NCBI GenBank assembly: GCA_963702105.1
Contig: OY969712.1
Span: 4,617,971-4,681,970 of the forward strand
Origin: an uncultured Gammaproteobacteria bacterium
GTDB taxonomy: Bacteria > Pseudomonadota > Gammaproteobacteria > Steroidobacterales > Rariloculaceae
Length of the DNA stretch: 64,000 nt
Reading direction: 5' to 3'
In this document: positions 5,560 to 46,713 of the stretch, in pieces
Layout: every line of letters begins with the position of its first letter
How positions within the stretch are numbered: position 1 is the stretch's first letter
Notes under the pieces: generated by a model
Seen by the model: the letters and a program-made list of their open reading frames with translations, nothing else
Told to the model about the DNA's origin: nothing
Databases searched by the model: none
Program-made: the position numbers and the translations under genes

Positions 5560-7440
5560 TCATTGGCAGGCCAGGCATTCGTCGTACTTCGTCACGTCGG
5601 CCTTGAGCGGGCGCTCGGGCCAGCGGCGCGTGTTGTCGCCCTCGACGCCCGCGAAGCCCGCGCGCTGCACGGACTTCGAGCGGCAGTAATAGAGGCTCTT
5701 GATGCCCCGCTCCCAGGCCGTCCAGTGCAGCATGAGCAGGTCCCACTTGTGCAGGTCGCTGTGCAGGAACAGGTTCAGGGATTGTCCCTGACAGATCGAG
5801 GGCGCGCGGTCGGCCGCGAGCTCGATGATCCAGCGCTGGTCGATCTCGAAGGCCGTGCGGAATACGGCCTTCTCGTGCTCGTCGAGGACGTCGAGGTGCT
5901 GCACCGAGCCTTCGTGCTCGAGGATCGAGCGCCAGGTCTCGGCCGTATCGAGCCCCTTGGCGGCGAGGCGCGCTGCGAGCGCCGGGTTTTTGACCGTAAA
6001 CGAGCCCGAGAGCGTCTTGTGCGTATAGATGTTGGCCGGGATCGGCTCGATGCACGCGCTCGTGCCGCCGCAGATGATGCTGATGCTCGCCGTCGGCGCG
6101 ATGGCGAGCTTGCTGCTGAAGCGCTCGGCGACGCCGCAGTCCGCCGCGTCGGGGCACGGACCGCGCTCGGCCGCGAGCCTCCGCGAGGCAGCGTCGGCTT
6201 CCGCACGCAGATGGCCGAACATCGCCAAATTCCAGCTCTTCGCGAGCGCGCTCTCGAACGCGATGCCGCGCGCCTGCAGGAACGAGTGAAAACCCATGGC
6301 GCCGAGCCCCACGCTGCGCTCCCGCCAGGCCGAGTAGCGCGCCTGCTCCATGCCGGCCGGCGCGCGTTCGATGAAGTCGTCGAGCACGTTGTCGAGGAAC
6401 CGCATGAGGTCCTCGACGAAGGCGGGCTCGCCCCTCCATTCGTCCCACTTCTCGAGGTTGACGGAGGACAGGCAGCAGACGGCCGTACGCGGCTCGCCCA
6501 GATGATCGCGGCCCGTCGGCAGCAGGATCTCACTGCAGAGGTTCGACTGCCGAACGGCGAGGCCGAGCTCGCGCTGATGCGGTGCGAGCGCGCGGTTCGC
6601 GGCGTCCACGAAAAGCAGGTACGGCTCGCCGGTCTGCAGGCGCGTCTCGAGGATCTTCTGCCACAGCAGCCGCGCCGAGACGGACTTCAGGGGCCGCCCG
6701 GTCGCCGGGCTGCGCAGCGTGAAGGCGCGATCGTCGCGCACGCATTCCATGAACTCGTCGGTCACGCAGACGCCGTGGTGCAGATTCAGGCTCTTGCGGT
6801 TGAAGTCCCCCGAGGGCTTGCGGATCTCGACGAACTCCTCGATCTCGGGATGGTGCACGTCGAGGTAGACGGCGGCCGAGCCGCGGCGCAGCGAACCCTG
6901 GGAGATCGCGAGCGTCAGCGAATCCATGACGCGCACGAACGGAATGATTCCCGAGGTCTGCCCGTTGGCCTTGACGGTCTCGCCGATCGAGCGCACGGCG
7001 CCCCAGTAAGTGCCGATGCCGCCGCCATTCGACGCGAGCCAGACGTTCTCGGTCCAGGTGCCGACGATCGCGTCGAGGCTGTCCTCGACCGCGTTGAGAA
7101 AGCACGAGATCGGCAGGCCCCTTTCCGTGCCGCCGTTGCTGAGCACGGGCGTCGCAGGCATGAACCACAGCTTCGACATATAGTCGTAAAGCCGCTGCGC
7201 ATGGGCCGTATCGTCGGCATAGGCGCGGGCGACCCGCGCGAACAGATCCTGGAATGACTCGCCCGGCAGCAGGTAGCGGTCCTCGAGCGTCGCCCGCCCG
7301 AAAGCGGTCAGCAGCGCGTCGCGTTCGTGATCCGTCGTTACCGCGCCCACGGTGCGCCTCCGGGGCCGGCCGCTCTGCACGCTCGTCAGCGAATGCCGGG
7401 CGGCCGTTCGCGATCTCGTCGTTGCCGTGGACTCGGTCAT
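5560..7440 (-). CDS. nrdA: class I ribonucleotide reductase, alpha (R1) subunit
   Basis: ORF 5560..7533. ATG 7440 is preceded by AAGAGG. Active-site SNLCSEI, C-terminal redox pair ..CLACQ. Followed by nrdB on the same strand. Confidence 0.85.
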   Translation of the reverse strand: MTESTATTRSRTAARHSLTSVQSGRPRRRTVGAVTTDHERDALLTAFGRATLEDRYLLPGESFQDLFARVARAYADDTAHAQRLYDYMSKLWFMPATPVLSNGGTERGLPISCFLNAVEDSLDAIVGTWTENVWLASNGGGIGTYWGAVRSIGETVKANGQTSGIIPFVRVMDSLTLAISQGSLRRGSAAVYLDVHHPEIEEFVEIRKPSGDFNRKSLNLHHGVCVTDEFMECVRDDRAFTLRSPATGRPLKSVSARLLWQKILETRLQTGEPYLLFVDAANRALAPHQRELGLAVRQSNLCSEILLPTGRDHLGEPRTAVCCLSSVNLEKWDEWRGEPAFVEDLMRFLDNVLDDFIERAPAGMEQARYSAWRERSVGLGAMGFHSFLQARGIAFESALAKSWNLAMFGHLRAEADAASRRLAAERGPCPDAADCGVAERFSSKLAIAPTASISIICGGTSACIEPIPANIYTHKTLSGSFTVKNPALAARLAAKGLDTAETWRSILEHEGSVQHLDVLDEHEKAVFRTAFEIDQRWIIELAADRAPSICQGQSLNLFLHSDLHKWDLLMLHWTAWERGIKSLYYCRSKSVQRAGFAGVEGDNTRRWPERPLKADVTKYDECLACQ

Positions 7441-13028: not shown

Positions 13029-13808
13029 GTGAGAACGGTCACCGCAACCCGCTATGTGACGCCGCTGCGCGAGGGCGGCTCGCTGCCGGCCATCGTCGAG
13101 GCCGACGACGAAGGGCTCTATGTGCTCAAGTTCCGCGGTGCCGGTCAGGGGCCGAAAGTGCTCGTGGCCGAGCTCGTCGCCGGCGAGATCGCGCGCGCCG
13201 CCGGCCTGCCCGTGCCCGAGATCGTCTTCGTTGAGCTCGATCCCGACCTCGCGCGCACGGAGCCGGACCCTGAGATCCAGGACCTCATCAAGGCCAGTGC
13301 GGGGCTGAATCTCGCGCTCGACTATCTGCCTGGCTCCGTCACTTTCGACCCCGTGGCGACTACGCCCGACCCGGAGTTCGCCTCGGCCGTCGTGTGGTTC
13401 GACGCCTATGTCACGAACGTGGACCGCACGGCCCGCAACACCAACATCCTCGAGTGGCATCGGCGGCTCTGGCTCATCGATCACGGCGCAGCGCTGTATT
13501 TTCACCATGGCTGGGACGAGAACTTCGCCGCGCACAGCCGCACGCCGTTCGCGCGCGTCAAGGATCACGTGCTGCTCGAATTCGCGGCGGAGCTGGCCGA
13601 GGCCGACCGGCTCATGCGCACGCGTGTGACGCCGGCCGTCATCGAGAACGCCGTCAAGCTCATCCCGGCGGGCTGGCTCGCGGAGGACTCGCCCGTGGGC
13701 GGCCGCGACCGGCAGCGGCGAGTCTACGCCGAGTACCTCACGGCGCGGCTCGAGGCGAGGCAGGTCTTTGTCGAGGAGGCGATCCGTGCGCGATCACTGC
13801 ACGTATGA
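13029..13808 (+). CDS. HipA-like (HipA_2 / PI3-4-kinase-fold) putative Ser/Thr kinase
   Basis: In ORF 12813..13808. GTG 13029 is preceded by GGGCGAGG. ..RYVTPLREGGSLPAIVEADDEGLYVLKFRGAGQG.., catalytic-loop-like NVDRTARNTN and LIDHG motifs. The upstream part of the ORF is low-complexity Arg/Ser and was rejected. Confidence 0.7.
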   Translation: MRTVTATRYVTPLREGGSLPAIVEADDEGLYVLKFRGAGQGPKVLVAELVAGEIARAAGLPVPEIVFVELDPDLARTEPDPEIQDLIKASAGLNLALDYLPGSVTFDPVATTPDPEFASAVVWFDAYVTNVDRTARNTNILEWHRRLWLIDHGAALYFHHGWDENFAAHSRTPFARVKDHVLLEFAAELAEADRLMRTRVTPAVIENAVKLIPAGWLAEDSPVGGRDRQRRVYAEYLTARLEARQVFVEEAIRARSLHV

Positions 13809-14703
13809 CTACGCCGTCGTGCGCGTCGTGCCGAAGGTGGACCGCGGGGAGTTCGTCAACGTCGGGGTGATCCTGTCGTGCCCGGCGCTGGACTTTCTCG
13901 AAGCGCGAATCGACCTCGACGAGGCGCGGCTGCTCGGGCTGGATCCGACCGTCGACGTCGAGGCCGTGCGCATGCACCTCGAGTCGATTCCGGTGGTCTG
14001 TCGCGGCGGACGCCGCGCCGGCCCGCTCGGCAGGCTCACGCAGCGCGAGCGCTTCCACTGGCTCGTCGCGCCGCGCAGCACGATGGTCCAGACCTCGGCC
14101 GTGCATGCCGGGCGGTGCCAGGACCCCGAGGCCGCGCTGCAGCATCTGCTGCGCAGGATGGTCAGCGCGCCTGGCGCGCTCGAAGAGAGGACACCCCGTA
14201 TGCTGATTCGTGAGGAGACGCCCGAGGACCGCGAAACGGTGGACGCCCTCATCGCGTCCGAGTTCGACACCGGCGCCGAGGCCGACTTCGTCGGGGCGCT
14301 GCGAGCGGGTCCACGGCCCGTCGTCTCGCTCGTGGCCGAGGAAGGCCGCGCCGTCGTCGGGCACGTCCTGCTCGCCCCCGCGCCGCTCGCGGGCGCGGCC
14401 GGCCCCGAGCTCATGGGGCTCGGCTGCCTGGCCGTGCTGCCCGAGCATCAGGGCCGCGGCATCGGCAGCGCGCTGCTTTCGGCCGCCCTCGACCGCTGCC
14501 GGGCGCTCGGCTTCGACGGCGTGGTCGCCCTCGGGCACGCGCGCTTCTATGCACGGTTCGGCTTCGGGCCGGCCGCGCGCTTCGGCCTACGCTTCCGCCA
14601 CTCGGTGCCGGAGGAGGCGTTCCTCGCGATCGAGCTCGTGCCCGGCGCGCTCGAGGGGCGCGGAGGCACCGTCGAGTATCTCTCGGCGCTGAGAAAGAAG
14701 TAG
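13768..14703 (+). CDS. DUF3037 domain fused in frame to a YhbS-like GNAT acetyltransferase
   Basis: 311-aa ORF without an internal stop. Residues ~10-132 (YDYAVVRVVPKVDRGEFVNVGVIL..) are DUF3037-like. Residues 145-311 (MLIREETPEDRETVDALI..LPEHQGRGIGSALL..ARFYARFGF) are GNAT. The start (ATG 13768 or GTG 13786) overlaps the kinase 3' end. The internal ATG 14200 has its own GAGAGGA Shine-Dalgarno. Confidence 0.65.
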   Translation: MSRRRSVRDHCTYDYAVVRVVPKVDRGEFVNVGVILSCPALDFLEARIDLDEARLLGLDPTVDVEAVRMHLESIPVVCRGGRRAGPLGRLTQRERFHWLVAPRSTMVQTSAVHAGRCQDPEAALQHLLRRMVSAPGALEERTPRMLIREETPEDRETVDALIASEFDTGAEADFVGALRAGPRPVVSLVAEEGRAVVGHVLLAPAPLAGAAGPELMGLGCLAVLPEHQGRGIGSALLSAALDRCRALGFDGVVALGHARFYARFGFGPAARFGLRFRHSVPEEAFLAIELVPGALEGRGGTVEYLSALRKK

Positions 14704-18894: not shown

Positions 18895-19350
18895 ATGGTC
18901 CGGCCGCCCGGCCGGCGGCAAGCGGATAAATTGGGCGGGTGTGAGGTTCATCCGCGAGCACTGACGCGCGGGAAACTGACGGCCGGGACGAAGACCTTCG
19001 CACTTTTGTGCTTGCCGCCTCTGGCCGCCGCGATGCTCGCGGGCTGCGCCGCGACCGACCGTACCGTCTCGGCGGCGTGGTTCGCTTGTGAGGCGAGCGC
19101 GGAATGCACTTTGGTGAGGGACCGCGATTGCGACTTCGTGCCCATCAACGCGCAGCACGCGAAAGCGTTTCTGGCTGCGACGCTGCCGCGTCGGCGGCGG
19201 CGCAGAAAGCACTGCTCGCCGAGCTCCGTCGCCGACGACTACCTGCCGATCTGCGAGGCTGCGCGGTGCTCCGCGCAGCCCATCCGAGCGCGGCCGGATC
19301 CGGATTCGAACCCGCTCGCCGCCGCGCTGCGCGCGGGCGCACCGGATTAG
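18895..19350 (+). CDS. putative Cys-rich lipoprotein (hypothetical)
   Basis: Tail of ORF 18628..19350. ..FALLCLPPLAAAMLAGC.. looks like a lipobox signal peptide. The start codon is uncertain, and I recognised no homology. Confidence 0.3.
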   Translation: MVRPPGRRQADKLGGCEVHPRALTRGKLTAGTKTFALLCLPPLAAAMLAGCAATDRTVSAAWFACEASAECTLVRDRDCDFVPINAQHAKAFLAATLPRRRRRRKHCSPSSVADDYLPICEAARCSAQPIRARPDPDSNPLAAALRAGAPD

Positions 19351-20561
19351 GGCGCCGGGCCGGTGTAGACGGCGCGCGGCCGGATCAAGGCGCGCTCGCG
19401 CATCTGCTCGCGCGCGTGGGCGGCCCAGCCGATGCTGCGGCCGACCGCGAACAGCCCGATTCCGGCATAGGGCGGCAGCGCGAGGACCTTCGCGAGCACG
19501 GCCAGCGCGTAGTCCACGTTCGGATGAACGCCGACCGCCTCCTTGACGTAGGCCGGGACGCTGCGCGTCAGCAGCGTCTCGCCGAGCCGGGTTTCGATGG
19601 CTTCGAGCAGCATCGCGGCGCGCGGGTCGCCGTCTCGATAGATCGCGTGGCCGAAGCCGGCCAAGCGCTCGCCGGCCTCGGCCTGCTCGCGAATGCGCGC
19701 CATGGCGTCGCCCCGCGTCAGGCGCTCGAGCTGCCGGGCCGCGCGCGTCGTGGCGCCGCCGTGCAGCGGACCTTTGAGCGCCGCCAGGGCGGCGACCGTT
19801 CCTTCGTATAGGTTTGCGCCCGTCGAGACGGCGCAACGCAGTGTGAACGTCGAGGCGTTGAGCTCATGGTCGGCCATGAGAACCAGCGCGATTCGGACCA
19901 GGTCCCGGCCCTCCGGGCCGAGCGCCCATGCTTCGGCCAGCTGCGCATGGATGGGAGCCGGCGAAATCGGCCCGGCACCCACGATGGCGGCCAGCAGGCG
20001 GGTGATACGCGCGGCTGCGAGCGCGAGCCCGTGGTCTGTCTTGTTGAACGCCGCATCGTCACTGGCGCCCGCGAGCGCGAGCGCAGCCATGGATGTGTCG
20101 ATCGGATGCGCGCTCGGGGCGGCCGCGGCGACGGCGCGCACGAGGTCGGCGGCCTGCGGCAGGTTCTCCGGGGCAAACGCGTCGTAGTCCGCGGTCTGCC
20201 ACAGCAGGCCGGCCGCCGTCTCGAGCGTCGCGTGGCGCGCGAGCTCCGTCGCCTCGACGCCCCGGTAATACAGCCGCCCGTCGGCGATGAGCGAGAGCCC
20301 CGAGGTCAGCACGGGCTGCCCGAGCAGGCCCGGGTAGCGGGCGGGCCTCTCGCCGCCCGCCGGCGGCGCGCGCCGCTCGCGCAGCGCCCTCACGTCCTCG
20401 GCCCGGTAGCGTTTCGCGCGCTCGCCCGGAATGGGCTCGGAGCGCACGAGGCCGCGGCTCACATACGCATAGAGCGTCGCAGGCGAGACGCCGAGCTCGG
20501 CCGCGGCCTCGCGGGCGGAAAGATAGGGCGTCGCCTCGGGCACCGGAGTCGCGGATTTCAT
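19347..20561 (-). CDS. HTH (MerR/excisionase-type) domain fused to a citrate synthase-like domain
   Basis: ATG 20561 (MKSATP..). N-terminal ..YLSAREAAAELGVSPATLYAYVSRGLV..RYRAEDVRAL... Then GPLHGGA, GFGHAIYRDGDPRA and HPNVDYA (citrate synthase His/His/Asp positions retained). Confidence 0.75.
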   Translation of the reverse strand: MKSATPVPEATPYLSAREAAAELGVSPATLYAYVSRGLVRSEPIPGERAKRYRAEDVRALRERRAPPAGGERPARYPGLLGQPVLTSGLSLIADGRLYYRGVEATELARHATLETAAGLLWQTADYDAFAPENLPQAADLVRAVAAAAPSAHPIDTSMAALALAGASDDAAFNKTDHGLALAAARITRLLAAIVGAGPISPAPIHAQLAEAWALGPEGRDLVRIALVLMADHELNASTFTLRCAVSTGANLYEGTVAALAALKGPLHGGATTRAARQLERLTRGDAMARIREQAEAGERLAGFGHAIYRDGDPRAAMLLEAIETRLGETLLTRSVPAYVKEAVGVHPNVDYALAVLAKVLALPPYAGIGLFAVGRSIGWAAHAREQMRERALIRPRAVYTGPAP

Positions 20562-20644: not shown

Positions 20645-21745
20645 ATGAGCAAGGACAATGATCGGGTCGTCGCGGCCGGCCTCGAGGGCGTCGCGGCGGC
20701 GGAGACCGCGCTCAGCGACGTAGACGGCGCCGCCGGCCGGCTCATTCTGTGCGGCGAGGACCTTGCGACGTTCGCGGCTCGACACGATTTCGAAAGTGCG
20801 GCAGCCGCGTTCTGGGGCGCGGCGGAAGCCCGCGCGCCGGTTTCGGCCGACGCCGTTCGCACCGCGCTCGGCGAGGCTCGGGAGGCGGCGTTCGCACGCT
20901 TCGAGACGCTGGCCGCCGCGGCCCGCGGACTCACGCTTTCGGAAGGCCTGCGCCTCGGCCTCGCCGCGCTGCACGCCGGCGGCTCCGAAGCGCGCTTCGC
21001 CGTGACGGGCGCCGTCCCCGTGCTCGTCGCGAACCTCGCGAGGCTTACGCAGGGCTTGCCTCCCGTCGCCCCGCGCCGCACCTCGGGGCACGTCGCCGAC
21101 TTCCTGCGGATGCTGGGCGACGCGGAGCCGGATGCGGCCTCGGTCGAGGCGCTAACGAGCTATCTGCTCACGGTCATGGACCACGGCATGAACGCTTCGA
21201 CCTTCACGGCGCGCGTCATTGCCTCGACGCGCGCCGATCTCATCTCGGCCGCCGTCGGCGCCTACGCCGCGCTGACGGGGCCGCTGCACGGCGGTGCGCC
21301 CGAACCCGTGCTCGAAATGCTCGACGCGATCGGGCGACCCGAGCGCGCAAGCGCGTGGATCGAAGCGGCGCTCACGCGCGGCGAGCGCATCATGGGTTTC
21401 GGCCACCGCGTCTACCGCGTCAGGGACCCGCGCGCGGACGTGCTCAAGGGCGTTCTCGAGAAGCTCGGCGATGCCGACGGCCGGCTCGCGCTCGGCCGCG
21501 CCGTCGAGGCGGCCGCGCTGGAAGCGCTGCGGCGGCACAAGCCGGAGCGCAAGCTCGAGACGAACGTCGAGTTCTACACGGCCATGCTGCTCGACGCGCT
21601 CGGCATGCCGCGCGCCGCCTTCACGCCGATCTTCGCGATGGGCCGCGTCGTCGGCTGGCTCGCCCATGCGATGGAGCAGCAGCGAACCGGAAGGTTGATC
21701 CGCCCGGCATCGGTCTACACGGGGGCGCGTCCGCTCGCGGCGTGA
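20645..21745 (+). CDS. citrate synthase / 2-methylcitrate synthase family protein
   Basis: ATG 20645 preceded by GGAGGG. GPLHGGAPE, GFGHRVYRVRDPRA. NVEFYTA carries Glu where citrate synthases normally have the catalytic Asp. Confidence 0.8.
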   Translation: MSKDNDRVVAAGLEGVAAAETALSDVDGAAGRLILCGEDLATFAARHDFESAAAAFWGAAEARAPVSADAVRTALGEAREAAFARFETLAAAARGLTLSEGLRLGLAALHAGGSEARFAVTGAVPVLVANLARLTQGLPPVAPRRTSGHVADFLRMLGDAEPDAASVEALTSYLLTVMDHGMNASTFTARVIASTRADLISAAVGAYAALTGPLHGGAPEPVLEMLDAIGRPERASAWIEAALTRGERIMGFGHRVYRVRDPRADVLKGVLEKLGDADGRLALGRAVEAAALEALRRHKPERKLETNVEFYTAMLLDALGMPRAAFTPIFAMGRVVGWLAHAMEQQRTGRLIRPASVYTGARPLAA

Positions 21746-27583: not shown

Positions 27584-27612
27584 ACAGAAAGGACGCGAAT
27601 CGGGAGAAGTCC

Positions 27613-28413
27613 ATGCTTCCGCAAGACCCTCCCGAAAGGGTCTCGACGAACCCGGCGGGCGCCCGGCCGCCGCGGCCCCAGAGCCCGAAACCTCACCCCG
27701 CAGCGCTCGCGAGTGCCGCAGCGTCGAGCAGCTCGACGCCACCTTCTGCCGCCTCACGCGCAACCTGCACGCCGAGACGTATCAACTGCTGCTCGTGATC
27801 CGCGAGCTCGACGATTGCTTCGGCTGGGCCAAGTGGAGCTTTCGCAACTGCGCCGAGTGGGTCGCCTGGCGCGGGCAGATGTCGCTCTCGGCCGCCAGGG
27901 AGAAGCTGCGCACGGCGCACGCCCTGCGTGAGCTGCCGCGGATCTCGGCGGCCTTCGCGGCCGGGCGGCTCTCGTACTCCAAGGCCCGGGCGCTGACGCG
28001 CGTCGCGCGGCCGGAGGACGAGGACCTGCTGCTCGCCTATACGCTCGATGCGACCGCGGCGCAGGTCGAGGAGCGCTGCCGGCAGATCCGCAACGTCGCG
28101 CCGGCGTCGGCCGAAGAAGCTGACTTCGCTGTGCACGTACCATCATCGGCTCGTGCACGAGGGCGGTTTCAGCGTCAGGGAGCGGGCGGACGGGCGGCTG
28201 GAGTTCCTGCGGCCCGACGGGCGCGTGATCCCGAGGTCGGGGTATCGGCTCGAGGACATGGTCGATGACGAGGCTGAGGCCGGGCCCGAGCGCGACGACC
28301 CCTCCGCGGAGGGGTCGGGCGGAACCGAAAACGAACCGCCCACGGGTGTGCGCGAGCCGCCGGGCGAATACCGGGTCGCCGGTCGGTCCCGGGGCGAGTT
28401 CCGCATGACTTGA
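27613..28413 (+). pseudogene. decayed DUF222 / HNH endonuclease gene (frameshifted, internally deleted)
   Basis: The ATG 27613 frame stops at 27798. The DUF222 core (..EQLDATFCRLTRNLHAETYQLLLVIRELDDCFGWAKWSFRNCAEWVAWRG..SYSKARALTRVA..) is in another frame. The HNH tail (..LTSLCTYHHRLVHEGGF..) is in a third frame (ORF 28048..28413). The central part with the first half of the HNH motif is absent. Confidence 0.65.
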
Positions 28414-32412: not shown

Positions 32413-34512
32413 CTAACGCTCGCTTTCCGTTCCGGGCAGCCACACGCGGAACTCCGCCCCGGGCCGCATGTTCCTGACCTCGACGTGCCCCGACATGGCG
32501 CCCGCGAGCTCGCGCACGAGGGCGAGCCCGATACCCGTGCCGGCCGTCTCGCGTGTGAGCTCGCCGGGCGGCCGGTAGAACAGCTCGAAGATCTTCCTGA
32601 GCTGTCCTTTCGGAATGCCCGGGCCGAAGTCCCTGACCGTGAACAGCAGGCCCCCGCGCTCCCGACGGCAGGCGATCTCGACGGTCTTGCGCTGCGCGCC
32701 GGCCGAGAACTTCAGTGCGTTGTCGGCGAGGTTGATAAAGATCTGTGCGAAGCAGTCCGCGTCCACGAGCACGGCGGCCTCGACGCCCGCGTCGTTGCGA
32801 AGCTCGAGCGCGAAGCCGGCCCGCTCGGCCTGAGTCGCGATCTTCGCCCTTATCCCCTCGAGGAGCTCGGCGACGCCGACGCGTTTCAGATCGAGCCGCT
32901 GCGAGCGGCGCGTGAGCCTGGCCAGCTGCAGCACGTTCTCGATGAGGCGCGACAACCGCTCGCTCTCGGAGTGAATGTACTCGTAGTACATCTGCTTCTT
33001 CGCATCCTCGGCCCAGCCGGCCTTCAGCATCTCTCCGTACATGCGGATGGATGTGAGCGGCGTCTTGAGCTCGTGGCTCACGGCGGAGACGAAATCCTGC
33101 TGCTGGCGCGCGAGGCGCAGCTGCCCTGCCGCGAATCGATACATGAGCACGAAGCCGCTGCCGAGCACGGCGGCGAGCACGACGCCCGTCCACCCGAGCA
33201 GCGCGCCGGCCGCACCGAGCGGCAGCGCGCCGGCCGTCATCACGAGCTCGAGCGCGCCGAAGGGCGGCGACATGCGCGCGCGATACAACAGCGTGCCGCG
33301 GTCACGGCTCCTGCCAGCCTCGCCAGCCGCGCCGAGCAGCGTGCCGGCGAACGTCACGCGGAGCGCGGCCGTTCGAGCCAGAGAGCTCGCCGCGACCTCG
33401 CTCTCGACGGCGTCGCGCAGGAAGCGTTCGCGATCGACGACTGCGCCCTGGACATAACGCTGTCGATCCCGCCAGGCGTTGCGGAACATGACGAGCTGCC
33501 CCGAATCGAGCAGACCGACCTCGAACGGATCGAGCTCGCTCTCGAAGGTCCGCACCCGGAACTCGGCGGCGTTGCTGCCGCTGCCGCTGTCGGCACTCTC
33601 GGGGGCCGCTTCCGTTTGTCCGCTTCGCCGGGCGGCGGCCGCGGCCGACCCCGCCGACCTTGCCTCGTCCTTCGCAATCGGTAAGGCCTCGTCGCGTAAG
33701 GAAGCCGCCTTCGGCAGCGGCCCGACCCTCTGAGCCGGCGCGCGCGCCGAAGCCCGATTCCCCGCAGCCGCGCTAAGCCGATCGAACGCCGCGCCGGGGC
33801 CGACGGCGGAATCGCGGCTCGACCCGGCAACATTCTTGTCCGACGAGGCATTCGGAAGTGCGCTGGCGGCGCTTGCGGAGACCTCCGCGGCACGCGCGCG
33901 CACCGAAGAAGACGGCAGATCCGACCGAAGCGCTGGAGCCGGTTCGGCCGACGCAGCCGGCCCATCCGAACCCGCCGACGGCACGGACGCTACGGACCCA
34001 ACCGCCGCAACCGGCGGACGTTGGACGAGGTGGTTGTCGACGAGCACGGTTCGAATCTTCGCTTCGACCGCAAGCCGGGCGTTGCGCTCCGCTTCCGTGA
34101 TCCCGAAGCGGGACCCGTCCATGTCGGGCCCAGGCAGCAGCGGCGTCGTGAGCCGCCCGGCCGAGTCCACTTGGAAGTAGCCGATCACGCCCGGCAGGGC
34201 GCTCGCAACGGGGAAGGCAGCAAGTGCGGAGGGCCGCACGCCGTTTACGCCGCCGGACCTGTCCACGATCAGGAAGGAATAGTCGGCGAAAGTACGCGCC
34301 TCCTCGGCCGCAACGGCCGCGCGCAGCCGGCCGTCTATGCGCCCAGCGAGGGTCTCTGCCGCGAGCTCCGCGCGGTGCAGCGCTTCCCAGCGCAGTTGCC
34401 GATAGGCCTCGGCAAACAGCACCCCGGCCGGCACCGCGAGCACGAGAAAGAACAGCGCGAAGAGCCACCGGAGACGGCGCTCGTCGAGGCGTCGGCGAAG
34501 CCATGCCCGCAT
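32413..34512 (-). CDS. sensor histidine kinase with large periplasmic domain
   Basis: ATG 34512, 4 nt after the response regulator stop. Two TM segments bracket ~390 aa that include an Ala/Ser-rich stretch. H-box SHELKTPLTSI, N-box NLADNALKF, G-box GTGIGLALV. Confidence 0.8.
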   Translation of the reverse strand: MRAWLRRRLDERRLRWLFALFFLVLAVPAGVLFAEAYRQLRWEALHRAELAAETLAGRIDGRLRAAVAAEEARTFADYSFLIVDRSGGVNGVRPSALAAFPVASALPGVIGYFQVDSAGRLTTPLLPGPDMDGSRFGITEAERNARLAVEAKIRTVLVDNHLVQRPPVAAVGSVASVPSAGSDGPAASAEPAPALRSDLPSSSVRARAAEVSASAASALPNASSDKNVAGSSRDSAVGPGAAFDRLSAAAGNRASARAPAQRVGPLPKAASLRDEALPIAKDEARSAGSAAAAARRSGQTEAAPESADSGSGSNAAEFRVRTFESELDPFEVGLLDSGQLVMFRNAWRDRQRYVQGAVVDRERFLRDAVESEVAASSLARTAALRVTFAGTLLGAAGEAGRSRDRGTLLYRARMSPPFGALELVMTAGALPLGAAGALLGWTGVVLAAVLGSGFVLMYRFAAGQLRLARQQQDFVSAVSHELKTPLTSIRMYGEMLKAGWAEDAKKQMYYEYIHSESERLSRLIENVLQLARLTRRSQRLDLKRVGVAELLEGIRAKIATQAERAGFALELRNDAGVEAAVLVDADCFAQIFINLADNALKFSAGAQRKTVEIACRRERGGLLFTVRDFGPGIPKGQLRKIFELFYRPPGELTRETAGTGIGLALVRELAGAMSGHVEVRNMRPGAEFRVWLPGTESER

Positions 34513-34516
34513 CGTC

Positions 34517-35222
34517 TCAAGGCTCTGCGAGCAGCCGGTACCCGGCCCCGCGAACAGTGACGAGATGGCGCGGTTCGGAAGCATCTGCCTCGACCTTGCG
34601 CCGCAGCTTTGCGATATGAATGTCTACCGTGCGCGTCTCGAGGTCGGCGTTACGGTCGTAGCCCCATACGCGCGTGAGGAGCTCCGTGCGCGATACGGGG
34701 CGATGCGCGTTCGCGTGCAGATACTGCAGGATTTCGATCTCGCGGCGCGTGAACGCCGTGGTCTCGCTGCCGCGCCGGCCCGCGAGGTTCTGCGTATCGA
34801 TCTCGAACGTCGTCGCCGAGCCTGATTACGGCCGCGGCAGCGGCGCCCGTGCGCGAGCGGCGCAGCACGGCCTTGATTCGCGCGACGAGTTGCGCGATCG
34901 AGAACGGCTTCGCGACGTAGTCGTCCGCCCCGAGCGCGAGGCCGCTGACGATATCCGCGTCCGTCGTCTTCGCAGTAAGCAGAATGATGGGCTGCTCGCG
35001 GTCGACCCTGCGCACTTCGTCGCAGATCGAAAACCCGTCGCGGCCGGGCAGCATGACGTCGAGCAGCAGAAGATCGTACTGGCCGCTCAGCGCGCGCGAC
35101 AGGCCCTCGCGCCCGTCGGAAACGGCGTCGACGCGGTAGCCGTGATACACGAGCACGTCTGCGAGCCCGTCGCGGATCGCCGCTTCGTCCTCGACCACGA
35201 GTATGCGTGCCTTGTTCTCCAT
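34517..35222 (-). pseudogene. OmpR/PhoB-family response regulator interrupted by a 1-nt frameshift (~34808..34802)
   Basis: The receiver domain is intact from ATG 35222 (..ILVVEDE..LLLLDVMLPG..LLTAK..YVAKPF..). The winged-helix part (..TAFTRREIEILQYLHANAHRPVSRTELLTRVWGYDRNADLETRTVDIHIAKLRRKVE..RGAGYRLLAEP) reads only in the +1 frame and ends at TGA 34519..34517. The listed ORF 34650..35255 ends in nonsense. Confidence 0.7.
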
Positions 35223-35388
35223 GCGCTCGATGTTGCCGGACACGGGAATGGACACTAGCAGGTCGCGCCGATCCGGAGTGTAAACAGTTTGTAAATCGCC
35301 GGCGAAAGATTTTGCACGATCGCGTCTGATGTCTTCCGTGCGCCGCGTCTAGTCTGCCTGCGGTTCCACTGACCAGGAGGCGAACGAC

Positions 35389-35929
35389 GTGGCACTCATA
35401 CACCGAATTTCCCGGCTCCTGACGGCGGACGTACACGCCGTCCTCGATCGCATCGAAGAGCCCGCGGCGCTGCTGCGCCAGGCCCTGCGCGAGATGGAAG
35501 AGGAGCTCGTGCACGGCGAGCGCCGTATCAAGCGCATCGAGCACGACCGCGCGGGCGCGGCCGGCCGCCGCGCGAAGCTCGAGGGCACGGTACGCGACCT
35601 CGACGCGAAGCTCGAACGTCTGCTTCGAGGGCGGGGACGACGCGGTCGCCCGCAAGCTGATTCGCCGCAAGCTCGAAGCGCAGCGCCTCGGCGAGCATCT
35701 TGAGGAGCGGCTCGGCTCGCTCGATGCGGCGCTCGCGGCCGCGCGTGCGGTGCTGGCAGAGCAGCGGGAGCGCTACAACGTCCTGCGCCAGAAGGCCGAG
35801 CTCCTGAGCGAAGCACCCGACGCAGACGGCGGCCGCGGCGACGATTGCGGCGGCGCGGCCTTCACCGTCGGCGACGACGAGGTCGAGGTCGCGTTGCTGG
35901 CGGAGCGCGGGCGGAGGGTACGGCAGTGA
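35389..35929 (+). pseudogene. PspA/IM30-family protein interrupted by a 1-nt frameshift (~35620..35629)
   Basis: The N-terminus MALIHRISRLLTADVHAVLDRIEEPAALLRQALREMEEEL.. aligns with PspA. The continuation ..EGGDDAVARKLIRRKLEAQRLGEHLEERLGSLDAAL..RYNVLRQKAELL.. is in the +1 frame and ends at TGA 35927..35929. The listed ORF stops at 35703 in nonsense. Confidence 0.65.
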
Positions 35930-36528
35930 CCCGCGGCGGGCATCCCTCGCTCGCGGACGGCATCGGGGCCGCCGTGTTCTTGAGCGCGACCGGGGCGGCG
36001 CTGCTTGCGGGGCTTCTGCTCTTCGCGAGTGCCGCGGCGGGTCTCCGGCTTACGGTTGCCGCGGTCGGCTTCGCGTACCTGCTCTACCTGCTTGCGCGAA
36101 GCGGCGAACGCACGGGCCGCTTGACGACCGTCGCGCTGTGGGCCATCGCGAGCATCGTGCTGTGGCTCATGGGCCCGGCGCTGCCGGCCTACGTCGCGGC
36201 CCACATCGCCGTGCTTTGGCTCGTTCGCGCGCTCTACTTCCACTCGAGTCTGCTCACCGCGATCGCCGATCTGGGCGTGGCTTTGCTCGGCGCCGTCTTC
36301 GCGGCCTGGGCGGCGCTGCGCTCGGGCAGCGCGTTGCTCGCGTTCTGGTGTTTCTTCCTCGTCCAAGCGTTCTCGGCCCTCATACCGCCGGCCCTCCGCA
36401 GCGCGGCGACGCGCGCCGAAGGCCCGGAACTGCACGGTGAGGACGGTACGCGGTACGACCCCACGACCTTCGAGCGCGCGCACCGCGCCGCGGAGGCTGC
36501 GCTGCGGCGCCTGGCCGTGCACCGCTGA
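35925..36528 (+). CDS. hypothetical 4-5 TM membrane protein downstream of the PspA-like gene
   Basis: Within ORF 35845..36528. GTG 35925 overlaps the PspA-frame stop (GTGA). Hydrophobic helices ..AAVFLSATGAALLAGLLLF.., ..VAAVGFAYLLYLL.., ..LWAIASIVLWLMG.., ..LLAFWCFFLVQAF... Confidence 0.5.
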
Positions 36529-36595
36529 CCTTGGTTTGGCCCTACGCAAAATCTACGCACGAACTTTACATTACCCACTGGAGGAGCTTCCGAAG

Positions 36596-37801
36596 ATGAC
36601 CGCAAAGACCGTTGGCCTCGTGCTTCTGGCCGCGACCGCCTCTGCCGTCGCGCTCTATCCGACCCAGCGCGGCCGCGCCGCGACCGGTTCCGTCCTCCCG
36701 CCGATTCCGGCCCAGCAGCAAACACGACCGGCCCATCATGCCAAGGTGGACGCCGTGTTCGTCCTCGACACGACGGGCAGCATGAGCGGACTCATCGAAG
36801 CGGCGAAGCAGAAGATTTGGTCCATCGCCTCGACGATGGCGCAGGCGCGGCCCGCGCCCGAGATTCGGATCGGCCTCGTAGCTTACCGCGACCGCGGCGA
36901 CGACTACGTGACACGCGTCGTCGATCTGAGCCCGGACCTCGATTCGATGTACGCACAGCTCATGTCTTTCACTGCCGGGGGCGGCGGCGACACGCCCGAG
37001 AGCGTAAACCGCGCGCTCGACGACGCCGTGAACCGCATTTCATGGAGCGCCGATTCCTCGAGCTACAAAGTCGTCTTCCTCGTCGGCGATGCGCCGCCGC
37101 ACATGGACTATCAGGACGATCGCAAGTATCCCGACTCGCTGCGCGAGGCGGCCGCGAAGGGCATCGTCGTGAACACGATTCAGTGCGGGGACATGGCGGC
37201 GACGATGGCACCCTGGCAGCAGATCGCCTCCCTCGGCGGCGGACGTTACTTCCGTGTCGAGCAGTCCGGCAGCGCGGTAGTCATCGGCACGCCCTACGAT
37301 GCGGAGCTCGCGGATCTTTCCGCGCAGCTCGACGCGACGCGCCTGTACTACGGGGCGCCCGCCGTGCGCCGCGCCCTCGAGTCGAAGGCCGAGGCGACGG
37401 CCGCACTGCGAGCCGCCGCGACGACGGCCGCGCAGGCGCGCCGCGGCGTCTTCAACTCCTCCGCGGCCGGCAGCGCCAACCTCACGGCCGGTCACGACCT
37501 CGTGGCCAACGTCGCGAGCGGACGCGCAGACATTGCCGCCGTACCGCCGTCCGAGCTGCCGAAGGCGCTCGCCGCCCTGCCGGCCGACAAGCGGCGGCAG
37601 CACGTCGAAGAAGCGGCCGCGCGGCGCAAGGAGATTCAGCGGCAGATCGCGGAGCTCGGCAAGAAGCGGGACGCCTACATCGCGAAGAAGCTCGACGAGC
37701 GCGGCGGCGCGGCCGGCTCCCTGGATCAGAAGATCTACGAGGCCGTGAAAGATCAGGCGGCATCCAAAGGGCTCGTGTACTCCGGCGGGCCGAAGTTCTG
37801 A
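36596..37801 (+). CDS. secreted von Willebrand factor type A (VWA) domain protein
   Basis: ATG 36596 preceded by GGAGGAG. Signal peptide MTAKTVGLVLLAATASAVA. MIDAS-like VFVLDTTGSMSG..GGGDTPES..FLVGDAPPH. C-terminal Ala-rich coiled region. Confidence 0.75.
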   Translation: MTAKTVGLVLLAATASAVALYPTQRGRAATGSVLPPIPAQQQTRPAHHAKVDAVFVLDTTGSMSGLIEAAKQKIWSIASTMAQARPAPEIRIGLVAYRDRGDDYVTRVVDLSPDLDSMYAQLMSFTAGGGGDTPESVNRALDDAVNRISWSADSSSYKVVFLVGDAPPHMDYQDDRKYPDSLREAAAKGIVVNTIQCGDMAATMAPWQQIASLGGGRYFRVEQSGSAVVIGTPYDAELADLSAQLDATRLYYGAPAVRRALESKAEATAALRAAATTAAQARRGVFNSSAAGSANLTAGHDLVANVASGRADIAAVPPSELPKALAALPADKRRQHVEEAAARRKEIQRQIAELGKKRDAYIAKKLDERGGAAGSLDQKIYEAVKDQAASKGLVYSGGPKF

Positions 37802-37908
37802 AGCGGCGACGCGTCCGCGAGCGCGACGGTCGAAGCCGGCGGCCGTGTCATATATCATCGGGAGCGGCCAGAGTTTCGAGTAGCCGAACCTCGAGGAGAG
37901 AAGAAGAA

Positions 37909-38544
37909 ATGCACGCCCGATTGCCCGTTTTGCTGCTGCTGATGCTGCCGGGTCTCGCCCCCGCGCAGACCACGCTGCCGCCCGACATCGATCCCGTCAC
38001 GCTGTCCCGTCTACCGCCCGTCACACCTCAGGATCTCGACGAGGAAGGCCGGCGGCTCCTCGCCAAGCGCCCGAACTTCAAGCCCGCCCCCGGGCCCACG
38101 CACGTGACGATTTACAGCCCCGACGAGCGCAGCATCGGTATTCCGATGGGCAACGGCAGCTTTGTCGGCGCGCGCAATTTTCAGCTTGCGACGCTCATCG
38201 TCGCGCGCGAGATCGATCAGCAGTTCGAATGGACCTACCACGAACCCGCGGCGCGGCAGGTAGGCCTGGAGCAGAAGGTCATCGATGTCGTCAAGTACGA
38301 CAGGGACGTCGCGGGGCTCTCGCCCGCAGACGCCACCTTCATCCGGTTCGGCCGAGAGCTGCTGCGGAAGCACGGCGTCAGCAGCGAGCTTTGGGCGGAG
38401 ATGGTCAAGCAGTTCGGCAAGCAGGGCACTGTCACGCTCATGACTATCATGGGCGACTATCTGAAAGTAGGGATCATGCTGAATGCCGTGGATCAGCACC
38501 TGCCGGCCGGACGGGAACCGCTGCTGCCGAAACTCGAGAAGTAG
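37909..38544 (+). CDS. carboxymuconolactone decarboxylase (AhpD-like) family protein with signal peptide
   Basis: ATG 37909 preceded by GAGGAGAG. MHARLPVLLLLMLPGLAPAQT signal. ..ATLIVAREIDQQFEWTYHEPAARQVGL.. is CMD-like. Confidence 0.6.
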   Translation: MHARLPVLLLLMLPGLAPAQTTLPPDIDPVTLSRLPPVTPQDLDEEGRRLLAKRPNFKPAPGPTHVTIYSPDERSIGIPMGNGSFVGARNFQLATLIVAREIDQQFEWTYHEPAARQVGLEQKVIDVVKYDRDVAGLSPADATFIRFGRELLRKHGVSSELWAEMVKQFGKQGTVTLMTIMGDYLKVGIMLNAVDQHLPAGREPLLPKLEK

Positions 38545-38740: not shown

Positions 38741-40189
38741 ATGCAAGCACCGGCTCACTACGACGACACGGTAGTGCGTCGCTTTGCCATCATGACGCTC
38801 GTCTGGGGCATCGTCGGCATGGCCGTCGGCGCCCTCATCGCGGCGCAATTGATCTGGCCGGATCTCAACTTCGGGCAGCCCTGGCTCGGCTATGGACGGC
38901 TGCGGCCGCTGCACACCAACGCCGTCATCTTCGCGTTCGGCGGCTGCGCACTGTTTGCGACCTCCTATTACGTCGTCCAGCGCACCTCCCACGTGCGGCT
39001 GTTCGCACCGAGGCTCGCGCACTTCACGTTTTGGGGGTGGCAGGCCGTCATCGTGCTCGCGGCGATCACGCTGCCGCTCGGCATTACCCAGTCGAAGGAA
39101 TACGCCGAGCTCGAATGGCCCATCGACCTGCTCATTGCAGTGGTCTGGATCGCCTACGCCGTCGTGTTCTTCGGCACGCTGGCCAAGCGCCGCGTCAAGC
39201 ACATCTACGTCGCGAACTGGTTCTTCGCGGCCTACATCATCACGATCGCGCTGCTGCACATCGTCAACGGCCTCGCCGTGCCGGTCTCGCTCACGAAAAG
39301 CTACCCGATCTATTCGGGCACCGTGGACGCCATGGTGCAGTGGTGGTACGGCCACAACGCGGTGGGCTTTTTCCTCACGGCCGGCTTCCTCGGGATCATG
39401 TACTACTTCGTGCCCAAGCAGGCGGATCGGCCGATCTACTCCTACCGCCTCTCGATCGTGCACTTCTGGGCCCTGATCTCGATCTATATGTGGGCCGGCC
39501 CGCACCATCTGCACTATACGACGCTCCCCGACTGGGCGCAGTCGCTCGGCATGGTCTTCTCGCTCATGCTGCTCGCGCCGTCCTGGGGCGGCATGATCAA
39601 CGGCATCATGACCCTCTCGGGCGCCTGGCATAAGCTGAGGACCGATCCCATCCTCAAGTTCCTAATCGTCTCGCTGTCCTTCTACGGCATGTCGACGTTC
39701 GAGGGACCCATGATGTCGATCAAGACCGTGAATGCGCTTTCGCATTACACGGACTGGACGATCGGCCACGTGCACTCCGGCGCGCTCGGCTGGGTGGCCA
39801 TGATCTCGATCGGCGCGCTCTATCACCTGATCCCGCGCGTCTTCGGGCGCTCCGGCATGTACAGCACGCGCCTCATCGACACGCACTTCTGGATCATGAC
39901 GGTCGGCATCGTGCTCTACATCGTCGCGATGTGGATCTCGGGTCTCATGCAGGGCCTCATGTGGCGCGCCGTGAACGACGACGGCACCTTGACCTACAGC
40001 TTCGTCGAGAGCCTCAAGGCGACGTACCCGTTCTACGCGGTGCGACTCGCGGGGGGTCTGCTCGTGCTCTCGGGCATGTTCGTCATGGCCTACAACGTCT
40101 GGATGACGCTGACTCGCGGCACCGCGGTCGAGCCGCAGCCCATGCCGCTGCCACAGATCGAAATCGAACCCGAGGCCGAGCCCGCTTAG
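38741..40189 (+). CDS. ccoN: cbb3-type cytochrome c oxidase subunit I
   Basis: 482 aa, polytopic. Heme-copper oxidase signatures (..[20 protein letters not shown].., ..[12 protein letters not shown]..). Confidence 0.95.
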
Positions 40190-44140: not shown

Positions 44141-46713
44141 CGAGGTGCTTTCACTGCGGCGAACCCGTGCCCGCAGGCGCGGACTTCGCCGTCACGATCG
44201 CGGGCGAGCGGCGCGCCATGTGCTGCCCCGGCTGTGCCGCAGTGGCCGAGGCCATCGAACGCAACGGCCTCGCGCGGTTCTACGCCTATCGAGAGGCGCC
44301 GAGCCGCCGCCCCGAGCGCGATGCGGCGCAGGACGACTATCGTGTCTACGACCGCCCTGCTCTGCGCGAGCGGCTCACGGCCGACGCGGGCGAAGGGCAG
44401 CGCGAGCTGCGCTGCACGGTCGGCGGCCTGACCTGTGCGGCCTGCGCTTGGCTCCTCGGCACCGGACTGCGGCGGCTCGAAGGTGTCGTGGACGCGGGCG
44501 TCAATCCGCTCTGCGCCGAGGCCTGGGTCCGCTTCGACGCGGCCAAGATCGAGCCGAGCCGCGTGCTCGCCGAAATCGCCGAGCTCGGGTTCGATCCGCG
44601 GCCTCGCGCGCTCGGCGGGCCGTCCGCGAGCGCGCGCCACCGCGAGCGCGACGCCGCCGAGCGGCGCGCCGCGCTCAAGCGCCTCGCCGTCGCGGGCTTC
44701 GGCGCGGCCCAGGTCATGACGTTCGGCGCGGCGCTCTATCTCGGCGCGGCCAAGCACATGAGCGCGACGTTCGAGTCGTTCTTCGAGCTCGTGAGCCTGC
44801 TCGTCGCGACCCCCGTCGTGCTCTACGCGGGCGCGCCGATCTTCGCGGCGGCGTGGGGGGAGCTTCGCCGCGGCAGGCTCGGCATGGACGTGCCCGTCGC
44901 GCTCGCCGTCGGCGGCGCGCTCGCCGCAAGCCTGTTCAACGCGCTGCGCGGACGCGGCACGGTTTATTTCGATTCTGCAACGATGTTTGTATTCTTCCTG
45001 ACCCTGGGGCGCTTCCTCGAAGCGCGCGCGCGGCACGAGGCCGGCTCGGTGTTCGACGCCCTCGCGGACCTGCTGCCCCTTGCCGCGCTGCGCCGTCGCG
45101 AGGGGCGCCTCGAAGCAGTAGGCACGCTGGAGCTCGAGCGCGGCGACCGGGTCGTCGTGAGCCCCGGCGAGGCGCTGCCCGCGGACGGCGTACTCATGAG
45201 CGCTGCCGAGCTCGACGAAGCGATCCTGAGCGGGGAGTCTCGCCCGCAGCAGCGCCGGCCCGGCGAAGCGGCGCTCGCGGGCAGCCTCAACGCGGGCAGC
45301 GCGCCCGTCGAGATCGAGGTCACGGGGCTTGGCGCGGAGACGTATGTCGGGCGCATCGGCGGCATGCTGGCCCAGGCCACGACCGCGCGGCCCGAGTTCG
45401 TGCGCACGGCCGATCGCGTCGCGGCCTGGTTCGTCGCGGCCGTGCTTGCGGCGACGGCCGTCGTGACCGGGATCTGGTGGCACGTGCAGCCCGGGCGCGC
45501 GTTCGACGTCGCCCTCGCCATGCTCGTCGCGACCTGCCCGTGCGCGTTGTCCCTCGCGACGCCGGCCGCGTTCTCCGTCGCACTCGCCGCGCTCGCACGC
45601 CGCGGGCTGCTGCTGCGCTCGACCCGCGCGCTCGAGCGCATCGGCGACGTAAACTGCTGGGTGTTCGACAAGACCGGCACGCTGACCGAAGGCGCGCTCG
45701 CGATCGCCCGCGTCGACACCTTTGGCGACCTTGCCGCGAACGCCTGCCTCGAGGCGGCCGCGGCGCTCGACGCCGGCGTCGAGCACCCGCTCGCGCGCGC
45801 GTTCGCCTCGGCCCGTGCTTCCGCGCGCGCCCCTGAGCCCGGGGAGGCGCCGGCTGGCCCCTTCGCGCTCGCCGAGGACGTGCGCTTCACGCCCGGGCAA
45901 GGCGTCGCGGGTAATTTCGCGGGCCGCCGCCTGCGCCTCGGCTCGCGCCGGTTCGTGCTCGGCTCCGAGCCGCCGGGCACGGACCGCGCGGCCGGGCCGC
46001 GGCTGCGGCCTCTGCCGCCCGCGGCGCAGGCCTCCGCGTCCGCGCCCGCGGCCGGCGAGTCGGCCGTCGCGGTCTATCTCGGCGACGAGCGCGGCGCGCT
46101 CGCGCGCTTCACGCTCGAAGACGCTCTGCGCCCGAGCGCGGCGCCCGCCGTGGCGGCGTTGCGGCGCGAAGGCCAGGCCGTCTCGATCGTGAGCGGCGAC
46201 GACGCGCGGACCGTGGCCGCGACGGCCGCCGCGCTCGGCGGCCTCGACTGGCACGCGGCGCAGACGCCCGACCGCAAACTCGCTTTCGTCGAGGACCGGC
46301 AGCGCCGGGGACATGTCGTCGCGGCCGTCGGCGACGGCATCAACGACGTGCCGCTGCTCGCGCGCGCGGACCTCTCGATCGCCGTCGTCGAAGGCAGCCG
46401 ACTCGCGCAGGCGAGCGCCGACGTCGTGTTCACGGGCACGGACCTCACGCTGCTGCCGCTCCTCGTCGAGGCCGGCCGCTCGACGCGCGCCGTCATCCGG
46501 CAGAACCTCACGTGGGCCGTGCTGTACAACTCGCTCGCACTGCCCGCCGCCGCGCTGGGCCTGCTCGCCCCGTGGGCCGCCGCGCTCGGCATGTCCGTGA
46601 GCTCGCTCGTCGTCGTCATGAACGCGCTGCGCCTGCGCCGTCTGCTCGGCGCCCGCCCTGCAGCGCCCAAGCGAACCGAGAGCAGCCTGCGTCTGCACGA
46701 GGCGACGGCATGA
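44137..46713 (+). CDS. ccoI: copper-translocating P-type ATPase CcoI/FixI
   Basis: GTG 44137 overlaps the ccoH stop (GTGA). CFHCGEPV..CCPGCAAV N-terminal metal sites, TCPCAL, FDKTGTLT, GDGINDVP. The upstream 175 codons of ORF 43612..46713 overlap ccoH and were rejected. Confidence 0.9.
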   Translation: MTRCFHCGEPVPAGADFAVTIAGERRAMCCPGCAAVAEAIERNGLARFYAYREAPSRRPERDAAQDDYRVYDRPALRERLTADAGEGQRELRCTVGGLTCAACAWLLGTGLRRLEGVVDAGVNPLCAEAWVRFDAAKIEPSRVLAEIAELGFDPRPRALGGPSASARHRERDAAERRAALKRLAVAGFGAAQVMTFGAALYLGAAKHMSATFESFFELVSLLVATPVVLYAGAPIFAAAWGELRRGRLGMDVPVALAVGGALAASLFNALRGRGTVYFDSATMFVFFLTLGRFLEARARHEAGSVFDALADLLPLAALRRREGRLEAVGTLELERGDRVVVSPGEALPADGVLMSAAELDEAILSGESRPQQRRPGEAALAGSLNAGSAPVEIEVTGLGAETYVGRIGGMLAQATTARPEFVRTADRVAAWFVAAVLAATAVVTGIWWHVQPGRAFDVALAMLVATCPCALSLATPAAFSVALAALARRGLLLRSTRALERIGDVNCWVFDKTGTLTEGALAIARVDTFGDLAANACLEAAAALDAGVEHPLARAFASARASARAPEPGEAPAGPFALAEDVRFTPGQGVAGNFAGRRLRLGSRRFVLGSEPPGTDRAAGPRLRPLPPAAQASASAPAAGESAVAVYLGDERGALARFTLEDALRPSAAPAVAALRREGQAVSIVSGDDARTVAATAAALGGLDWHAAQTPDRKLAFVEDRQRRGHVVAAVGDGINDVPLLARADLSIAVVEGSRLAQASADVVFTGTDLTLLPLLVEAGRSTRAVIRQNLTWAVLYNSLALPAAALGLLAPWAAALGMSVSSLVVVMNALRLRRLLGARPAAPKRTESSLRLHEATA

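Follow-up and report, generated by a model that had tools for sequence, protein, structure and literature searches.

Gene cluster at the locus

The window (the whole 64-kb stretch of DNA that was analyzed) contains a cluster of five genes, two of which form a divergent pair, and each of these two is split between reading frames. One is an OmpR-family response regulator gene on the minus strand (34517..35222; ATG at 35222, stop at 34519-34517), and the other is a PspA/IM30-family gene on the plus strand (35389..35929; GTG start at 35389, stop at 35927-35929). Directly downstream of the regulator, with 4 nt between the regulator stop and the kinase start, lies an intact gene for a sensor histidine kinase (32413..34512, minus strand) with HisKA and HATPase_c domains in Pfam searches, which matches 50+ orthologs in a single frame. 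PspA is followed by the intact gene of a predicted membrane protein (35926..36528, plus strand), whose GTG start overlaps the PspA stop, and by an intact gene for a VWA-domain protein (36596..37801, plus strand; PF25106, PF00092), the third gene of the PspA operon.

Once its frame is repaired, the predicted regulator has the domain layout of the OmpR family, with an N-terminal receiver domain (PF00072, 98 bits, residues 7-117) and a C-terminal winged-helix Trans_reg_C domain (PF00486, 82.6 bits, residues 154-230), and is 78-81% identical to its orthologs. The frame-repaired PspA scores 53.3 bits against PF04012, above the gathering cut-off of 33.9, with a match to profile positions 4-138 of 220, which assigns the predicted protein to the PspA/IM30 family. 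Both genes are ordinary members of these families.

The arrangement in which PspA adjoins the kinase and the receiver–winged-helix regulator is kept in 60+ genomes, and the membrane protein and VWA genes are kept beside PspA in relatives. This synteny suggests that PspA may be controlled by the neighboring two-component system. PspA operons adjoining two-component systems are a known theme, exemplified by LiaRS-LiaIH, where a PspA/IM30 homolog and a membrane partner similarly adjoin a histidine kinase and a receiver–winged-helix regulator (PMC11237479). The PspA partners in the window are unlike those of LiaRS-LiaIH, being an uncharacterized multi-pass membrane protein and a VWA protein, and a scan of the five cluster proteins gave no match to the LiaI/LiaF or Toastrack Pfam families. 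The regulators also differ, LiaR belonging to the NarL-type family and the regulator in the window being of the OmpR type.

Position of the reading-frame breaks

The receiver domain (35222 to ~34808) and the winged-helix domain (~34806 to the stop) of the regulator are encoded in different minus-strand frames, the second in +1 relative to the first. This had been noticed in an earlier note made from the sequence, and is borne out by the translations and by the Pfam matches to PF00072 and PF00486. The break proposed there, ..GDDV|EIDTQNL.., agrees with the ortholog alignment, in which 13 regulator orthologs read (G/A)xD(V/I)(E/A)IDT, in extended form followed by (R/Q)NL. Four of these (L001, L021, L062 and L002) carry GAC GTC GAG ATC GAT ACG, differing from the window only in lacking one T. 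The lesion, CTCGA[A]CGTC on the plus strand (34802..34811), thus has an extra A:T pair at 34806/34807, and the coding strand reads GAC GT[T] C GAG in place of the ancestral GAC GTC GAG (D-V-E). The un-inserted codon is also the one preferred in the codon-usage training set (GTC, 35.0 per 1000 codons; GTT, 3.3 per 1000).

The PspA-like gene is likewise split between frames on the plus strand, as the translations and the match to PF04012 confirm, with residues 1-75 in frame 0 and the sequence from V77 on in the +1 frame. The junction had been placed at CTG CTT CGA G (35620-35629), a position contradicted both by the homolog columns and by the profile score. Placement of the junction with 120 homologs and 15 orthologous loci showed that in the best 120 of 1,743 PspA homologs the columns following L75 are D (95/120), V (107/120), C (100/120) and F (118/120), and that the orthologs read ..(E/Q)L(D)(V/I/L)CF.. 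here. Because these columns match the +1 frame of the window, which already reads NVCFEGGDD upstream of the proposed CTT-CGA-G, the shift must fall between L75 and V77. The junction is therefore L75|D76-V77, CTC GA[A]C GTC (35611-35620, plus strand), 9 nt upstream of CTT-CGA-G, with an extra A at 35615/35616 relative to the ancestral CTC GAC GTC (L-D-V). The letters at 35620..35629 are read in the +1 frame as TGC TTC GAG, encoding the conserved C-F-E. Against the profile of the 120 homologs, the repaired protein with the corrected junction (LDVCF) scores 238.5 bits and that with the former junction (LERLL) 222.2 bits, a penalty of 16 bits. As in the regulator, the un-inserted codon is the preferred one (GAC, 39.5 per 1000 codons; GAA, 10 per 1000).

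Skipping one nucleotide repairs either gene, as had been proposed, and gives full-length proteins on translation. The inverted repeat described for the PspA site, CTCGAA-N7-TTCGAG (35611-35629), is present; with the extra A its arms are 6 bp long, against 5 bp without it. The regulator site is not part of any inverted repeat.

The statement that, apart from an HNH remnant, no other gene in the window is broken also stood up to examination. In a codon-usage scan, a same-strand frame switch with both frames open occurred only at the two lesions and at ordinary gene boundaries, and Pfam scans of ~50 other ORFs agreed, giving single-frame, near full-length matches. The sole other damaged gene is the DUF222/HNH remnant (~27.6-28.4 kb), which has an internal deletion.

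A shared 10-mer on one DNA strand

The two breaks had been described as sharing an NTT-CGA-G context on their respective coding strands, which is incorrect, since the PspA junction lies elsewhere. Both lesions instead carry the identical 10-mer CTCGAACGTC on the plus strand, at 34802 and 35611, and the lesions are 810 bp apart. Removal of one A from this 10-mer gives CTCGACGTC at both sites, restoring D-V-E in the regulator and L-D-V in PspA. The true shared context is stronger than NTT-CGA-G and different from it: when all possible one-base insertions were enumerated, one per gene, the probability of arriving at the same 10-mer by chance was P ~ 1.5 × 10−5. Apparent twin frameshifts of this kind should be located by ortholog alignment before a motif is read into them.

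Given the divergent orientation of the genes, their mRNAs carry reverse-complement sequences at the lesions (GACGUUCGAG in the regulator, CUCGAACGUC in PspA) and so have no ribosomal signal in common. The event on the plus strand, CTCGACGTC to CTCGAACGTC, is identical in both genes, which places its cause at the level of the DNA or of the sequencing reads, and not of translation. The same reasoning applies generally to divergent genes with one lesion on the same DNA strand.

The window holds 8 copies of the ancestral 9-mer (CTCGACGTC/GACGTCGAG), 2 of them affected and 6 clean (at 3561, 5182, 5887, 13954, 35055 and 43847). The copy at 35055, between the two lesions, runs in the opposite direction and lacks the insertion. 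The two that carry it are both plus-oriented, a bias that is not significant (P = 0.11). Two of the clean copies, the plus-oriented one at 5182 and the one with the extended pattern at 5887, sit in ribonucleotide reductase genes (nrdA and nrdB). A longer motif common to both sites, CTCGA(A)CGTCNNCNNCGAG, was considered and dropped: by our own estimate, a shared 4-mer at equal offset has a chance of ~0.2, and the third copy of the motif, at 5887, is unmodified.

Intactness of related loci and age of the lesions

A query with the neighboring kinase yielded 74 related loci. Of the 69 in which the regulator has a full-length match, 67 keep it in a single frame, and PspA is in a single frame in 61 of 63 (the exceptions being L004 and L021). 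The best 120 of 1,743 PspA homologs are all 169-228 aa long and unsplit, with at least 95% query coverage, and the DNA of the orthologs has the un-inserted sequence at both sites. Alignment of orthologous loci, proposed in the earlier note, thus showed that the split is not conserved.

The closest PspA homolog among 5.8 billion proteins is merely 63% identical, which makes a same-species comparison impossible. Exact look-ups for independent assemblies, using the kinase from two starts, the 104-aa truncated PspA product and the VWA protein, had none on record. Patterns spanning each site, in which the extra base was optional, found no near-identical DNA in metagenomes: that for PspA had 0 matches, and that for the regulator had one chance match (L075), with no recognizable resemblance to either the window or the cluster proteins.

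Decay was measured by counting departures at positions where the orthologs are at least 95% conserved. The counts were 1/93 for the repaired regulator, 1/17 for the repaired PspA, 3/107 for the kinase, 0/11 for the membrane protein and 3/97 for the VWA protein, all within the spread of intact orthologs. The repaired proteins and their three neighbors thus keep conserved residues as functional orthologs do, contrary to the suggestion of a decaying stress system. The hallmarks of old pseudogenes, namely extra lesions and lost conserved residues, were absent from the two genes, each of which has one lesion. The absence of decay in the repaired genes implies that the insertions are either very recent or absent from the organism.

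The proposal of programmed +1 frameshifting

Programmed +1 ribosomal frameshifting at NUU-CGA-G, yielding full-length regulator and PspA, would constitute a new bacterial recoding signal common to a regulator and its target, and the evidence leaves it next to no credibility. A +1 shift does restore both genes, and CGA is uncommon here (4.2 per 1000 codons; 32/628 Arg codons in the training set). The supposition that CGA is a rare codon was right to that extent and wrong insofar as CGA is not the rarest Arg codon, AGA being lower (1.1 per 1000). The likeness to CUU-UGA in prfB (RF2) and CUU-AGG in Ty1 lies in the +1 direction and, at the regulator, in an uncommon Arg codon after NUU.

The proposal is refuted by the position of the PspA junction, the reverse-complement mRNAs, the lack of conservation and the presence of the motif in frame elsewhere. 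A slippery P-site followed by a slow codon was not found at either lesion. The regulator junction is GUU-CGA, and Val-tRNA is unable to re-pair on UUC; the PspA junction is CUC-GA[A]-C, read as CUC-GAA-C, 9 nt upstream of CUU-CGA-G, and likewise offers no +1 re-pairing. The two mRNA contexts are reverse complements of each other, not one signal. Some 65 orthologous loci and the best 120 of the 1,743 PspA homologs lack the split. In-frame GTT-CGA-G (15191), ATT-CGA-G (42717) and CTT-CGA-G (53652) occur in three intact genes of the window, inside full-length Pfam matches. The CUU-UGA site of prfB has an upstream Shine-Dalgarno element, whereas no Shine-Dalgarno-like AGGAGG/GGGGG was found within 10 nt upstream of either lesion, and folding of both sites showed no RNA structure beyond that of shuffled sequences (z = +0.31 and −0.17). 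Unlike in prfB and Ty1, the split in the window is thus not conserved, and its two sites share no mRNA motif and have neither a stimulator nor the potential for re-pairing; the PspA site lies elsewhere than the motif, and the motif is decoded normally in other genes. The supposed signal fails every testable defining feature of the prfB/Ty1 type.

Origin of the extra bases

Our preferred explanation, which we hold with somewhat better than even confidence, is that both extra bases were inserted by a context-dependent error in the assembly consensus. An error of this kind, in sequencing or assembly, was among the possibilities raised previously and survives here, with the context being CTCGA[A]CGTC on one strand rather than TTCGAG. 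It would probably have come from long reads that pass through a G+C-rich succession of TCGA/GACGTC/ACGT palindromes. The extra base would then be absent from the DNA of the organism, whose true genome would encode both proteins, the OmpR-type regulator and PspA/IM30, in intact form. Both sites may have failed together because one set of reads, with one strand bias, covers this stretch of 810 bp, and strand-biased error in the local reads would explain the clean distant copies as well as the clean, minus-oriented copy at 35055, between the sites.

The recurrence of the insertion in a defined context, at the same 10-mer on the same strand, fits this explanation, since basecalling and consensus errors are typically specific to a k-mer; for two independent random insertions the coincidence would have the low probability given above. 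The un-inserted ortholog DNA, the lack of decay in the repaired proteins and in the kinase, membrane and VWA proteins, and the preserved spacing between the regulator stop and the kinase start argue in the same direction. Frameshifts within the five-gene cluster of relatives are almost confined to Nanopore-only metagenome assemblies, occurring in 5 of 12 Microflora Danica MAGs (2-6 each) versus 2 of 62 other loci (Fisher P = 9 × 10−4); these MAGs are the nearest relatives of the window. The Microflora Danica MAGs were assembled from Nanopore reads alone, using Flye followed by a single Medaka round (PMC12313526). In published evaluations, residual Nanopore errors fall in homopolymers, heteropolymers, locally G+C-rich stretches, regions of low coverage and near methylated bases, and those near methylation have incomplete penetrance, most methylated sites being called correctly (PMC12392509; PMC11649196). 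The lesions in the window resemble the context-dependent or methylation-associated indel errors of long-read (Nanopore-only) bacterial and MAG assemblies in being single-base length changes that recur at an identical k-mer and give apparently frameshifted genes, in a G+C-rich, palindrome-dense context with incomplete penetrance (2/8 copies); the Nanopore-only relatives show many such breaks in this cluster. They differ in kind from the MAG frameshifts that were traced, which included homopolymer-length changes such as C to CC and A5 to A4 and duplication of a GC dinucleotide, the window instead having +A at the 10-mer. A comparison of two Nanopore MAGs, L003 and L024, which are 97% identical over the regulator gene, for their error spectrum was set aside, because overall they are only 88-94% identical and their real differences are too many to separate from errors.

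Several observations weigh against a consensus error. Of the 8 ancestral 9-mers in the window, 6 are clean, and in 152 kb of related Nanopore MAG sequence the 10-mer is absent and 0 of 27 copies of the 9-mer are inserted (P = 0.047). With all 27 copies intact in those MAGs, a generic platform error at this k-mer is ruled out. Only two errors would have occurred in 64 kb, both within 810 bp (P ~ 0.025 for uniform placement), and both breaks are in functionally linked genes. Genuine insertions, taking all routes together and including a sequence-directed hotspot, we rate at rather less than an even chance. The larger part of that falls to very recent, independent +1 insertions, a doubtful though still plausible reading in which both genes are fresh pseudogenes, the PspA response under two-component control has only just been lost, and the second lesion was neutral because the first had already shut the regulon down. 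The sole internal frame switches in 64 kb do lie in neighboring, divergent genes of one conserved cluster, the other 9-mer copies are clean, including those in the Nanopore relatives, and a real pseudogene, the HNH remnant, exists elsewhere in the window. Two of the clean copies, at 5182 and 5887, sit in ribonucleotide reductase genes, in which an insertion would probably be lethal. In having one lesion per otherwise intact gene, in functionally linked neighbors, the pair resembles ordinary frameshift pseudogenes; an identical 10-mer at both sites is not expected of independent mutations (P ~ 1.5 × 10−5), barring a hotspot with a specificity of 9-10 nt. To our knowledge, no single-base-duplication hotspot of such specificity has been described outside homopolymer runs. 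Furthermore, neither gene nor the rest of the cluster shows any further decay.

Such a hotspot would make CTCGACGTC a strand-specific site of +A insertion, an improbable reading in our judgment; it might involve modification or cleavage of the GACGTC/TCGA palindromes or hairpin-templated synthesis. Two routes can be envisaged. Quasi-palindrome template switching would perfect CTCGA..TCGAG into CTCGAA..TTCGAG, and imprecise repair could follow cleavage at the GACGTC palindrome. Two non-essential neighbors would have been knocked out, and the copies in nrdA and nrdB kept clean by selection, which we think similarly improbable. In keeping with a hotspot, the extra A extends the PspA inverted repeat, as expected of a quasi-palindrome-templated frameshift, the insertion at G^ACGTC (GACGT^C when read from the other strand) falls inside a 6-bp palindrome, and both affected copies are plus-oriented. 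Against it, the regulator site has no inverted repeat, the orientation bias is the non-significant one noted above, and a duplicated base extends a hairpin with a 1-in-4 chance, so that the longer PspA repeat is weak evidence. The 24 intact GACGTC sites, compared with ~22 expected from base composition by our own calculation, indicate no depletion. Quasi-palindrome templating fits PspA only, and its failure at the regulator site leaves the shared 10-mer unexplained. Engineered disruption by restriction-site fill-in (Tth111I, GACNNNGTC; TaqI; AatII) was considered by reasoning only and rejected, as the predicted products do not match the insertion.

On the preferred explanation of a consensus error, as on that of fresh pseudogenes, the finding is an ordinary one. 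In annotation, both genes are best recorded as intact, one an OmpR-type regulator and the other a PspA homolog, or else provisionally flagged as frameshifted. The one insertion recurring at an identical 10-mer is a minor unexplained feature that, given the reads, could help to diagnose a systematic mode of error.

Conservation of the five-gene cluster

The arrangement of the histidine kinase, OmpR-type regulator, PspA, membrane protein and VWA protein genes (32413-38544 in the window) is kept in 60+ gammaproteobacterial genomes, as judged from the window together with L001-L072, which are among the related loci retrieved with the window's kinase as query. These genomes include Woeseiaceae, Sedimenticola, Methylophaga, Dokdonella and Hahella. 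The kinase and regulator genes are divergent from the other three; the PspA is short, at about 175-180 aa, and the membrane protein is of the multi-pass type. In a survey of PSP partners, two-component partners are discussed, but a VWA partner is nowhere mentioned (PMC11237479). Comparison of the window's PspA with its 120 closest homologues showed a single departure from a highly conserved column, L86V (35641-35643), where all 120 homologues contain Leu.

Frameshifts in the window and its relatives

The same 10-mer, CTCGA[A]CGTC on the plus strand, marks both lesions in the window, in the regulator and PspA genes. Its reverse complement, GACGTTCGAG, occurs twice more in the window, within intact genes for ccoN (39694-39703) and a P-type ATPase (44766-44775), and in each case is read in frame as G ACG TTC GAG (T-F-E). 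The word is therefore normal coding sequence in this genome.

Five of the related loci (L003, L004, L021, L063 and L067) belong to Nanopore-only Microflora Danica MAGs, and each contained 2-6 frameshifts in the five-gene cluster (about 5.3 kb each). The frameshifts traced in L067 are length errors in short runs (C to CC, A5 to A4), and L003 carries a GC duplication. Deposited public genes of this clade are often broken, and the cause is technical.

One of these frameshifts lies close to a lesion of the window. The regulator ortholog of L003 (5745-5775; MAG MFD00392.bin.2.65, an independent Nanopore MAG) carries a +2 (GC) insertion relative to the related locus L024, one codon upstream of the position matching the window's regulator lesion; L003 reads GAC GGC G[CG] GTC GAA ATC, whereas L024 reads GAC GGC GTC GAG ATC. 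Given 18 frameshift events in the Microflora Danica loci, we estimated the chance of such nearness to either window site as roughly 0.1, and the insertion was therefore treated as a coincidence.

Other genes in the window

The remnant of a DUF222/HNH-endonuclease-type gene (27600-28410) contains a DUF222-like N-terminal part (27795-28110) and, joined to it in a different frame, the HNH end of the C terminus (..CTYHHRLVHEGG..). The portion of the gene between them appears to have been deleted. The remnant has no connection with the lesion 10-mer and represents a genuine pseudogene.

Two divergent citrate-synthase-family genes are present at 19347-20543 (-) and 20645-21745 (+). In the protein encoded by the former, the citrate synthase domain is fused to a DNA-binding domain of the HTH_17/MerR type at the N terminus. 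At 13056-14703, a HipA_2-like kinase gene and a DUF3037-GNAT acetyltransferase fusion gene overlap by 23 nt, and may constitute a toxin-antitoxin-like or defense pair.
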